From contig JAJYED010000004.1 in assembly GCA_021790305.1 (NCBI GenBank), forward strand, positions 1 to 57,351: 57,351 bases of DNA, written 5' to 3'. The DNA comes from Candidatus Micrarchaeota archaeon (GTDB taxonomy: Archaea; Micrarchaeota; Micrarchaeia; Micrarchaeales; CABMGC01). Every line of letters begins with the position of its first letter. Position 1 is the stretch's first letter. The notes beneath the pieces were generated by a model, which saw only the letters and a program-made list of their open reading frames with translations, was not told the DNA's origin and searched no databases. The position numbers and the translations under genes were made by a program. This document shows positions 33,703-57,347 of the stretch, in pieces.

Positions 33703-33803
33703 TGGTGCAGGGAGAGAGATTTGTTCAGTGTTATTGAACTCTCGTAGGCCTAAGCCAACAGATCTTGAGTCTGTCGCGTTTGACCAGGCTCCGCCATCCC
33801 TGC
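33703..33803 (-). tRNA. tRNA-Leu(CAA) with a 13-nt intron in the T loop (33721-33733); CCA encoded
   Basis: GCAGGGA/TCCCTGC acceptor, ACAGA-CT CAA GA-TCTGT arm, variable arm; removing TAACACTGAACAA restores GAGAG-TTCAAAT-CTCTC. Confidence 0.9.
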
Positions 33804-36904: not shown

Positions 36905-37564
36905 TCAGCGTTTTTTGAGTACAGCGAATAGGTGCATCCTGTCGAAAGGCATAAGGTCCATTGACTCCACAACCTCGAATGTTCCGGATACCGCCTTTAG
37001 GAATTCCTTGTACACCACTTTCGGATTCTTTGATACGCTGATGCTCTGTGACTTTATTGCAACATATGCATAGCTTCCTTTTCCTAGGAACCTGCTGTTC
37101 TCGATAAGCATCTGCGCCTGATCCCTTGCGGCTATATCCTGATACAGCACGTCTGCAAGGCCCACTTCTTCAGCATACCTCTCAACGTTCCTTGCATTTT
37201 CCAGTATAGGCAGCATATTCTCCCGCTTTTCGCAGACCTTTATCAGATCTCGTACGCTTCTCTCAGATACCTCTACGCAGTAGAGCTCTCCTTCCATTGA
37301 TATTATGTCGCTTATATGGCTGCATGTTGTGCCTGTCGCTGCTCCCAGGTAAAGAACCTTGCTCCCCTTCTTTATCTGCATGTGCCTCATTCCTTTCAGA
37401 ATGGCAGCGGCAAGCTTTGATCTGTAGGGATTCCATAGCCTGTACTCTTTGCCATCCGCTTTAACAAGCTCTTCTCCGTATACCTTCTCTCCCTGTACAA
37501 GATTGACAGTTGCAAGCTTTCCATTCACCCTGAACACCCCGTCGAATACTTCCTTTGCAGTCAT
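36905..37564 (-). CDS. flpA: fibrillarin-like rRNA/tRNA 2'-O-methyltransferase
   Basis: VYGE, YRLWNPYRSKLAAA, VLYLGAATGTT, YQDIA. Confidence 0.96.
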   Translation of the reverse strand: MTAKEVFDGVFRVNGKLATVNLVQGEKVYGEELVKADGKEYRLWNPYRSKLAAAILKGMRHMQIKKGSKVLYLGAATGTTCSHISDIISMEGELYCVEVSERSVRDLIKVCEKRENMLPILENARNVERYAEEVGLADVLYQDIAARDQAQMLIENSRFLGKGSYAYVAIKSQSISVSKNPKVVYKEFLKAVSGTFEVVESMDLMPFDRMHLFAVLKKR

Positions 37565-45958: not shown

Positions 45959-46031
45959 AGTCCCGTCATCTAGTGGCCAAGGATAGCGGGCTTTGGACCC
46001 GCTTACGCCAGTTCGAATCTGGCCGGGACTA
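45959..46031 (+). tRNA. tRNA-Gln(TTG)
   Basis: AGTCCCG/CGGGACT acceptor (A1-U72), GCGGG-CT TTG GA-CCCGC, GCCAG-TTCGAAT-CTGGC. Confidence 0.95.
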
Positions 46032-49127: not shown

Positions 49128-49267
49128 GGGGTTGTTGCGTAACTTGGCAGCGCGGCAGGCTCCAGATGTTTATAATCCAATGAGCCTTTCGGCGATGATG
49201 AGGATCTGGAAGTACCGAATAAATATGAAGTAACCTGCAAGTCGGGGTTCAAATCCCCGCAACCCCA
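49128..49267 (+). tRNA. tRNA-Trp(CCA) with a 67-nt intron at 37/38 (49166-49232)
   Basis: GGGGTTG/CAACCCC acceptor, GCAGG/CCTGC anticodon stem, CCA at 49162-64, T arm GGGGTTCAAATCCCC. Confidence 0.92.
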
Positions 49268-57136: not shown

Positions 57137-57228
57137 GATAATACAGAGCGCAACTGGTTGCCTCGTTCTTACAGCAATTACACTGTTCTTCGCGATAAAG
57201 GATTTGAGATGGCGCGAGGCATGAGTTT
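57135..57228 (+). repeat. right, internally deleted copy of the permease 3' end
   Basis: 25-bp and 66-bp exact matches to the left copy, about 45 bp missing between them. Confidence 0.9.
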
Positions 57229-57347
57229 GGCGGGGGGGAGATTTGAACACCCGATCTCTAGATTTCTAAGATCATAGCCGAAAGGCTCATTACTCATCAT
57301 GCTATGCATATGAGTCTAGCGCTCTAACCAGGCTGAGCTACCCCGCC
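57228..57347 (-). tRNA. tRNA-Met(CAT), probably elongator, with a 45-nt intron at 37/38 (57264-57308)
   Basis: GGCGGGG/CCCCGCC acceptor (G1-C72, not initiator), CTAGA-CT CAT AA-TCTAG after splicing; Ile2 identity not fully excluded. Confidence 0.88.

Follow-up and report, generated by a model that had tools for sequence, protein, structure and literature searches.

The elongator tRNA-Met(CAU) gene at the end of a 57,351-nucleotide (nt) stretch of DNA from a Candidatus Micrarchaeota archaeon (contig JAJYED010000004.1, called here the window) is interrupted by a 45-nt intron in which an antisense segment is followed by a kink-turn. Comparison with related genes indicates that this feature is real and strongly conserved. 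The intron is probably a cis-acting, box C/D-type guide with a single kink-turn, which would direct 2'-O-methylation at its own transcript's wobble cytidine (Cm34) before the precursor refolds and is spliced.

Guide helix and kink-turn of the tRNA-Met intron

The elements of the gene are as follows, where i1 to i3 are the first three intron bases and P1 is the helix formed by guide and target.

57228-57347, minus strand: elongator tRNA-Met(CAU) gene with intron (Rfam tRNA model, 54.8 bits; G1-C72 acceptor stem)
57309-57347, minus strand: 5' exon, tRNA nt 1-37, ending ...CUAGA CUCAUA (sequence read directly)
57264-57308, minus strand: intron, 45 nt, at 37/38 (direct reading and Rfam tRNA alignment)
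57228-57263, minus strand: 3' exon, nt 38-73, starting A UCUAG (sequence read directly)
57312, minus strand: C34, wobble base and predicted 2'-O-methylation target, opposite G at 57295
57306-57315, minus strand: P1 target strand ACTCATATGC, A31-A37 and i1-i3 (ACUCAUAUGC as target letters in the pairing)
57291-57302, minus strand: guide strand GCATGATGAGTA / GCAUGAUGAGUA, AUGAGU pairing with nt 31-36 and GCAU with A37 and i1-i3
57287-57290, minus strand: D-type box AUGA, the non-bulged kink-turn strand, of which GA alone is conserved
57277-57286, minus strand: kink-turn C-stem closed as a hairpin, GCC-UUUC-GGC, with invariant first G-C and C-G pairs
57270-57276, minus strand: C-type box UAUGAUC (3-nt bulge UAU, GA, then U), N-R-U-G-A in 39/39 copies
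57264-57269, minus strand: intron tail UUAGAA, of which UUAG partners C32-A35 in an alternative fold and AA, with A38, gives the 3' bulge

The intron stretch GCAUGAUGAGU is antisense to tRNA nt 31-37 together with i1-i3, and the two form helix P1. The original prediction, made from the letters of the window, paired GCAT(G)ATGAGT with this target across one bulged G, and direct reading reproduces the pairing: the paired part of the guide strand is GCAU-G-AUGAGU (57292-57302), after which come an A and then AUGA. With the guide in DNA letters, the pairs are A31-T, C32-G, U33-A, C34-G (57312 with 57295), A35-T and U36-A, followed above the bulged G by A37-T, i1-A, i2-C and i3-G. The G at 57295, which faces C34, is the fifth base upstream of the AUGA box. 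The register that had been proposed is thereby confirmed, and it is the same in 39/39 copies of the gene.

The kink-turn consists of AUGA, the hairpin and UAUGA (57272-57276), and has a closed C-stem, a UAU bulge and tandem GA/GA; a box C/D motif has this architecture when a loop closes its terminal stem. A second box pair (C'/D') is absent from the intron, and there is no other GA/GA motif at a usable distance. By nearest-neighbour energies for the window's own sequence, P1 plus the hairpin comes to -13.1 kcal/mol, and the minimum free energy structure, which is the same fold with one additional pair, to -14.8 kcal/mol.

Conservation, covariation and breadth

The 120-nt gene was used as a BLAST query against 40 relatives of the same order (Micrarchaeota, DPANN). 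Full-length matches that include the intron are found in 37 of the 40, with 74-100% identity, and only partial ones in G010, G011 and G021. The comparative set comprises 39 gene copies from 38 genomes, counting that of the window and a further one in G004. An unpublished genome, G038, is counted among the relatives, and no conclusion depends on it alone.

All 39 copies follow a common plan. It begins with CUCAU, an upper helix with a 3-4 nt loop and 0-2 bulged bases, continues with the guide core AUGAGU (GUGAGU in one copy), exactly three bases and GA, and ends with a GC...GC hairpin, N-R-U, GA, a variable tail of 1-11 nt (mostly ..AGAA) and A38. The spacing from AUGAGU to GA is constant across the 39 copies, while intron length spans 34-51 nt; because this spacing is fixed, the N+5 register, in which the fifth guide base upstream of the box faces C34, never shifts. 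The two bases before GA are AU, AC, CA, GC, AG or UU, and therefore the "D box" is NNGA rather than the ATGA box that had been named from the window alone. The bulged base is G, U, C or A, or is absent, and therefore the AUGAUGA that the window's own genome presents inside the guide is accidental; as a candidate C box it is a product of the bulged G and was set aside.

An alignment was made of 35 of the 39 sequences, giving 34 distinct rows; L001, L002, L004 (the same as the own copy) and L006 (the same as L005 there) were omitted. Over the 34 rows, 97.0% of the 575 cells of P1 and the hairpin are paired, whereas partners slid out of register are paired in 20-46%. The covariation score is 0.100, as compared to 0.034 +/- 0.007 in shuffles, none of which reaches 0.100 in 500 trials; this test is inflated by relatedness, and weight is placed on the types of pair rather than on the shuffle count. 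The six pairs between nt 31-36 and the guide are present in every row, such that helix 2 is paired in 100% of cells, and the fixed anticodon loop leaves them no room to covary. Helix 3, which has up to four further pairs across the bulge, is paired in 91% of cells. Within it, A37 covaries with the guide, being replaced by G:C in two rows, and i1 does likewise, as A:U in two rows and G:C in two. Besides G038, the compensatory G37:C pair is present in L027 (G029) and several of the named loci. The third pair of the hairpin is A:U in 15 rows, C:G in 8, U:A in 5 and U:G in 1, and both of its sides have changed in 14 of the 34 rows. RNAalifold, given no structure, yields the same P1 and hairpin helices. 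The survey of Met introns for guide covariation that had been proposed as a check therefore finds it in the upper P1 pairs and in the hairpin stem, with an invariant register.

Measured against a box C/D guide, the intron has an antisense element directly upstream of the D box and a predicted kink-turn, read as GA, a closed GC stem that covaries, N-R-U and GA. The consensus boxes RUGAUGA and CUGA are kept only in part, as RUGA and NNGA.

The covariation above the bulge also bears on which molecule is the target. The guide might act mainly in trans, with an excised linear or circular intron, or another precursor, methylating other pre-tRNA-Met molecules or, for example, rRNA. The tRNA-Trp intron guide offers a parallel, since it was first proposed to act in cis and later shown to act in trans or intramolecularly, as given in the sections of PMC7994747 drawn on here, and a dimer of Nop5 could conceivably bridge two half-mers. 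However, the upper P1 pairs use intron bases that are found only in the precursor, and thus the conserved partner is the pre-tRNA itself. Guide positions 8-11 covary with i1-i3, the first bases of their own intron, which points to unspliced pre-tRNA-Met as substrate and not to rRNA, and the 3-nt loop makes an intramolecular hairpin by far the likeliest pairing. Action mainly in trans is accordingly judged improbable.

A covariance model (R1) was built from the tRNA-Met intron alignment. In a phylum-wide sample of 151 genomes, R1 has matches in 115; for the genomes of good quality the count is 101 of 133, and for genera it is 66 of 86. By family the matches range from 45/45 in f3 and 22/25 in f1 to zero in several, such as f11 (0/8). 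A scan with the exact pattern, using one genome per prokaryotic species, gives at least 118 stretches, almost wholly labelled Candidatus Micrarchaeota; these loci are selected by the pattern itself and so say nothing of how conserved it is. Among the 80 stretches listed, 79 stand in a tRNA context by eye, the exception being a chance match in Collinsella; 77 have an exact 3' anticodon stem, and ARAGORN calls an intron-bearing tRNA in 72. The labels other than Micrarchaeota among the listed matches are Aenigmatarchaeota, Iainarchaeum, Nanoarchaeota and "Marsarchaeota" metagenome-assembled genomes.

Chance complementarity, or the ordinary pairing of intron and anticodon for a bulge-helix-bulge, must be weighed against these data. 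Archaeal introns normally do pair with the anticodon region, and AUGA complements U33-U36 of any CAU tRNA. A loose form of the motif (ATGAGT-NNN-GA-N6-14-RTGA) occurs once in the window, where 0.30 occurrences are expected anywhere in the 57 kb, and at least one occurrence is present in 24 of 100 shuffled windows. Confined to the approximately 20 possible starts in the tRNA-Met intron, however, the expectation falls to roughly 5e-5 by arithmetic from the shuffles. The splicing motif has another partner, the ..AG at the 3' end of the intron, and the guide, the spacing and the kink-turn are kept, with covariation, over the order and much of the phylum. The comparative data contradict an origin by chance, which is considered very improbable.

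tRNA identity, sister introns and protein machinery

ARAGORN, with introns allowed, shifts the intron by two bases and calls the gene Ser(cga); a short variable loop and comparison with the relatives identify the anticodon as CAU. The Rfam tRNA alignment of 57228-57347 (minus strand) places a 47-position insertion in the anticodon loop. The other CAU tRNA of the genome has A1-U72 and three G-C pairs beside the anticodon loop, which marks it as the initiator. In five near-complete relatives, a pattern search with standard loop and T-arm finds no third CAU tRNA; an initiator-like CAU tRNA accompanies the intron gene in four of the five, and none is found by pattern in G023. A tRNA-Ile(UAU) with an intron of roughly 17 nt is present in 5/5 same-genus genomes searched, and the tRNA also occurs in other relatives, in many cases intron-bearing too (loci L216-L233); it was not found in the window's own assembly, which is incomplete. 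No tRNA-Ile2(CAU) is seen in the lineage, for which TiaS was not searched. AUA is apparently read by tRNA-Ile(UAU), without agmatidine. Because the lineage reads AUA with UAU, the intron gene is elongator tRNA-Met. A role in distinguishing Met from Ile2 CAU tRNAs had been suggested for the intron guide, and this suggestion is not borne out, given that no Ile2(CAU) is seen and that the relatives use tRNA-Ile(UAU).

The window, contig C35 of an assembly of 742 kb in 37 contigs (43.7% G+C, 82% complete; designated G000 below), stops 4 nt upstream of the tRNA-Met gene. The gene occurs a second time, in identical form, inside contig C12 (G000:C12:31368-31487); 125 nt are identical and the 3' flank differs, which means either that the gene is present twice or that the assembly breaks at a repeat. 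In the window's own genus, the T-stem of this tRNA (57236-57252, minus strand) has a U52.U62 mismatch (GGGUG / CUCCC), and the stem is fully paired in most relatives. In one metatranscriptome run, X20, the unspliced gene appears with its 5' flank in just one contig, of 152 nt, and no spliced joint is present; DNA carry-over is a possible source.

Two other tRNA introns of the genome carry comparable modules.

G000:C18:4201-4321 (loci L234/L236): tRNA-Ser(UGA), long variable arm, half-mer guide in the intron
49128-49267, plus strand: tRNA-Trp(CCA), 67-nt intron with two kink-turn motifs
49180-49201, plus strand: tRNA-Trp intron kink-turn hairpin AUGA-GCCUUUCGGC-GAUGAUGA, a GCC/GGC hairpin as in tRNA-Met
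49202-49213, plus strand: tRNA-Trp guide, 12 nt, complementary to U33-i2, directly after the kink-turn hairpin
49214-49218, plus strand: tRNA-Trp box ACCGA, then a short loop and AUGAAG from 49225

The tRNA-Ser(UGA) gene reads ..UCUUGAG-UUUG-CUCAAGAG-CUGA-UUACAA-AUGAUGC.., with canonical boxes and a 6-nt loop, and is present in 37 of the 40 relatives. All 30 loci that were read have P1, an invariant GAG followed by CUGA, a 3-9 nt loop and RUGAUG, and in all 30 the fifth base from CUGA lies opposite U34. One relative, L262, has a CGA anticodon together with G for A in the guide, a compensatory change at the predicted target.

The tRNA-Trp gene, for which an ARAGORN call of Arg(cct) at 49128-49267 reflects an error of intron placement, has full-length matches in 35 genomes, and 30 loci from relatives were read. 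The order within the intron is the kink-turn hairpin, the 12-nt guide, an NNGA box, a short loop and RUGAAG, with the C/D end closed by the loop. In 19 of the 30 loci the second box has GA in the N+5 register for C34, and in one it has neither GA nor NNAA. As read from its sequence, the Trp module of this genome appears supportive, if not clean.

No comparable module is visible by eye in the tRNA-Cys, Tyr and Leu introns of the same genome. The tRNA-Cys(GCA) intron (G000:C3:3523-3633) and the tRNA-Ile(UAU) intron of a relative (L221, G011) share a hairpin, AAACUUCUU...AAGAAGUUU, which may be a mobile or recurrent intron element. A 98-nt tRNA at 33706-33803 (minus strand; Rfam 45.1 bits), missed by ARAGORN, has the loop CUCAAGA, hence Leu-CAA, and an insertion in its T-arm region that looks like a non-canonical intron.

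Fibrillarin, L7Ae-family proteins and a Nop5 homologue are encoded in the genome, as is a standard guide RNA.

36905-37564, minus strand: fibrillarin gene, 219 amino acids, the presumed methyltransferase (Pfam PF01269, 256 bits)
G000:C32:1361-2134 (locus L040): Nop5 (aNOP56) homologue, Nop domain, 257 amino acids
46036-46082, plus strand: canonical 47-nt C/D small RNA (sRNA), GUGAUGA-12-CUGA-AUG-GUGAUGA-10-CUGA, 4 nt after tRNA-Gln (45959-46031)

Fibrillarin is present in 40 of the 41 genomes of the order sample. In the window its gene is not beside that for Nop5, which is on another contig, and upstream of it is a divergent open reading frame of 769 amino acids that resembles a sensor histidine kinase by eye. 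The L7Ae family is represented by two genes on contig C20. The Nop5 homologue aligns to residues 126-375 of Sulfolobus solfataricus Nop5 (3id5_A) and to positions 125-378 of the 417 of NF011121. The Nop5 profile is matched in 39 of the 41 genomes, only from position 91-139 on, with two partial matches starting later, and no second locus covering the N-terminal part was found in the order-sample genomes. PF08156 (NOP5NT) has no match in the window's own genome, but it has none in 14/14 control genomes either.

The canonical C/D sRNA indicates that standard guide RNAs exist in this genome; with tRNA-Gln it looks like a dicistronic tRNA-sRNA unit. A search for targets of three canonical-looking C/D sRNAs gives self matches and chance-level 9-10-mers only, in an assembly that apparently lacks rRNA. 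A separate guide for tRNA-Met, of the sR-tMet type, was also sought: in the own genome, 9-mers complementary to the anticodon region are no more frequent than chance would give. Among 111 ATGAG-NN-NNGA sites, the sole non-self complement of 10 nt (G000:C18:21427) was judged a chance match; it lies in an open reading frame of 189 amino acids with a ribosomal-protein-like C-terminus. No convincing separate tRNA-Met guide is therefore seen in the own genome, although at 82% completeness its absence is not demonstrated.

Methylation, splicing and known guide systems

In a canonical 37/38 intron, nt 32-35 pair with the four bases that precede the 3' bulge. A similar pairing can be drawn here, in which the partner is the conserved ..AG of the intron tail: C32 pairs with G in 33/33 rows, and U33 with A or G in 33/33. 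Pairs at C34 (16 of the 33 rows) and at A35 (18 of the 33) alternate by tail type, so that the central helix has about three of four base pairs. Bulges UA/U and AA/A, the slash marking the junction, are drawable at the 37/38 junctions. For the own sequence this bulge-helix-bulge-like fold comes to -2.0 kcal/mol; it shares nucleotides with P1 and requires the hairpin's 3' strand as well. P1 with the hairpin is far more stable. The unbound precursor should thus sit in the guide fold, by these computed energies, with its 5' splice site buried, and would have to refold for splicing. For pre-tRNA-Trp, the guide fold and the splicing fold are reportedly mutually exclusive. The splicing endonuclease of Micrarchaeota is of the epsilon2 type and, as described in the parts of PMC3239211 and PMC3488258 used here, has broad substrate specificity and accepts relaxed motifs, which fits a relaxed bulge-helix-bulge at this intron. 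The papers on the ARMAN endonuclease make no mention of box C/D or Met.

The proposed sequence of events can be put as follows. In the unspliced RNA, as sequence and comparison show, nt 31-37 and i1-i3 fold back on the guide to form P1, with the kink-turn directly 3' of it. L7Ae would bind the kink-turn, and the Nop5 homologue and fibrillarin would dock on the bound kink-turn. Fibrillarin would then 2'-O-methylate C34 of the same molecule while it is held in the P1 fold. The anticodon region would subsequently leave P1 and pair with the ..AG at the 3' end of the intron, giving the relaxed bulge-helix-bulge that the endonuclease of the lineage would cut, such that methylation precedes splicing.

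The same folds could instead serve a purely structural or processing role, with L7Ae bound at the kink-turn masking the anticodon, acting as a folding chaperone, timing or licensing splicing, or stabilising the excised intron, and with no methyl transfer. The 5' splice site lies buried in P1, whose stability far exceeds that of the bulge-helix-bulge-like fold, so that P1 could act as a splicing gate on its own; there is one kink-turn with degenerate boxes, and the Nop5 homologue is without the domain that normally holds fibrillarin. Such a role nevertheless leaves unpredicted the fixed register at nt 34 (39/39 in Met, 30/30 in Ser-UGA, 19/30 in Trp) and the compensating guide change in the Ser tRNA that bears C34. 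Position 34 of exactly these tRNAs is, in addition, a known target of guide RNAs elsewhere. A structural role without methylation is therefore regarded as rather unlikely, and guided methylation of C34 in cis is preferred.

Several points weigh against guided methylation all the same. Archaeal C/D ribonucleoproteins (RNPs) normally use two kink-turns, and half-mers work poorly in some in vitro systems, whereas the tRNA-Met intron has a single kink-turn. Its boxes are degenerate, with NNGA and RUGA in place of CUGA and RUGAUGA; most copies have a bulge of 1-2 nt past guide position 7; and target and guide are linked by a loop of only 3 nt, which may be tight within an RNP. The Nop5 homologue has no recognisable N-terminal fibrillarin-binding domain, and thus how fibrillarin would be recruited becomes a question. 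R1 finds no module in 36 of the 151 phylum genomes, whole families among them. In Trp, the second box is NNAA rather than NNGA in 5 of the 30 loci, and in the five own-genus copies, that of the window included, GA comes one base late (ACCGA), off N+5. Finally, the formation of Cm34 in Micrarchaeota tRNA-Met is a prediction from sequence, held as probable along with the cis-guide interpretation of which it is a part.

The module is box C/D-like, but it does not have the second box pair, one of the features that define the archaeal family, and it goes with an unusual Nop5. Of the idea of a minimal single-guide C/D RNA nested in its own substrate, the invariant register, the covariation, the sister modules and the presence of genes for fibrillarin, L7Ae and a Nop5 homologue speak in favor, and the part that did not survive is the consensus D box.

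RNA-guided methylation of the same nucleotide is known from several systems. Joardar 2011 is said to have found that haloarchaeal sR-tMet guides Cm34 in trans, and the title of that paper has the precursor with its intron as the substrate. In archaea, elongator tRNA-Met owes its Cm34 to box C/D RNPs, according to the portions of PMC6601510 and PMC4033218 used here. The modification also occurs in vertebrate elongator tRNA-Met, with SNORD97/SCARNA97 as the human guide (Vitali and Kiss 2019, PMC6601510, used in part); Cm34 is likewise RNA-guided there, but the guide is eukaryotic, trans-acting and a canonical snoRNA/scaRNA. In Pyrococcus, a separate sRNA serves Cm34 of tRNA-Met, and the tRNA-Trp intron (sR50) guides Cm34 and Um39, as given in PMC7994747. 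The haloarchaeal sR-tMet and the Pyrococcus sRNA share with the Met intron, as far as these sources go, the target nucleotide and the enzyme system, but they have separate genes and two box pairs. The euryarchaeal pre-tRNA-Trp guide of Pyrococcus (sR50) and Haloferax volcanii is likewise intron-borne and methylates C34 of its own precursor (Clouet d'Orval 2001 and later work, as reviewed in PMC4033218 and PMC7994747, both in part). It has C/D and C'/D' boxes and two guides, for C34 and U39, whereas the Met intron makes do with a single kink-turn and a single guide, joined to its target by a 3-nt hairpin loop.

The closest likeness is to Nanoarchaeum equitans, whose elongator tRNA-Met has an intron of 66 nt that contains a stable C/D-box-like RNA (Randau 2012, Genome Biol 13:R63; PMC3491384). 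The row for this RNA in the supplement, one of the parts of the paper drawn on here, gives 31,500 reads and the target as "no prediction". The tRNA, the DPANN host, the D box, the closed GC stem and the C box, as they appear in those parts, are shared with the intron described here. By eye, the row reads AUGAG, then 2 nt and CUGA, ahead of a closed stem and GAUGA; the N+5 register on C34 is thus the same. Unlike the 45-nt Micrarchaeota intron with its NNGA and RUGA, the N. equitans intron is longer and, in the same row, has a consensus CUGA and an extra 6-bp GC hairpin. The sections of PMC3491384 consulted propose a methylation-guide role, name no target and do not describe conservation. The guide-like tRNA-Met intron design thus has a precedent in N. 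equitans and is no first sighting, and the original prediction, which credited intron-borne guides to tRNA-Trp only, was too narrow in this regard. Beyond Randau 2012, no account of a guide-like intron in tRNA-Met came up in a literature search; more may stand in Clouet d'Orval 2001 and Joardar 2011.

If the cis-guide interpretation is correct, a tRNA intron retained across a whole genome-reduced archaeal phylum would gain a concrete function, and Cm34 of elongator tRNA-Met would be reached in three ways: by an sRNA with its own gene in haloarchaea and Pyrococcus, by human snoRNAs, and by an intron-borne cis guide in DPANN archaea. The guide would be much smaller than the textbook archaeal C/D RNA with two motifs, with one kink-turn and approximately 10 nt of antisense covalently tied to the target, and the function of a half-mer C/D RNP in vivo would become a directly testable question. 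More tentatively, and as a possibility on the doubtful side, DPANN archaea including Micrarchaeota may have a minimal, possibly monomeric C/D system, with wobble-directed self-guides of one kink-turn each in the introns of at least tRNA-Met, tRNA-Trp and tRNA-Ser(UGA), an L7Ae/fibrillarin complex assembled on a Nop5 without the N-terminal domain, and mutually exclusive folds that enforce methylation before splicing. Such a system, if real, would explain why these introns are retained despite extreme genome reduction.

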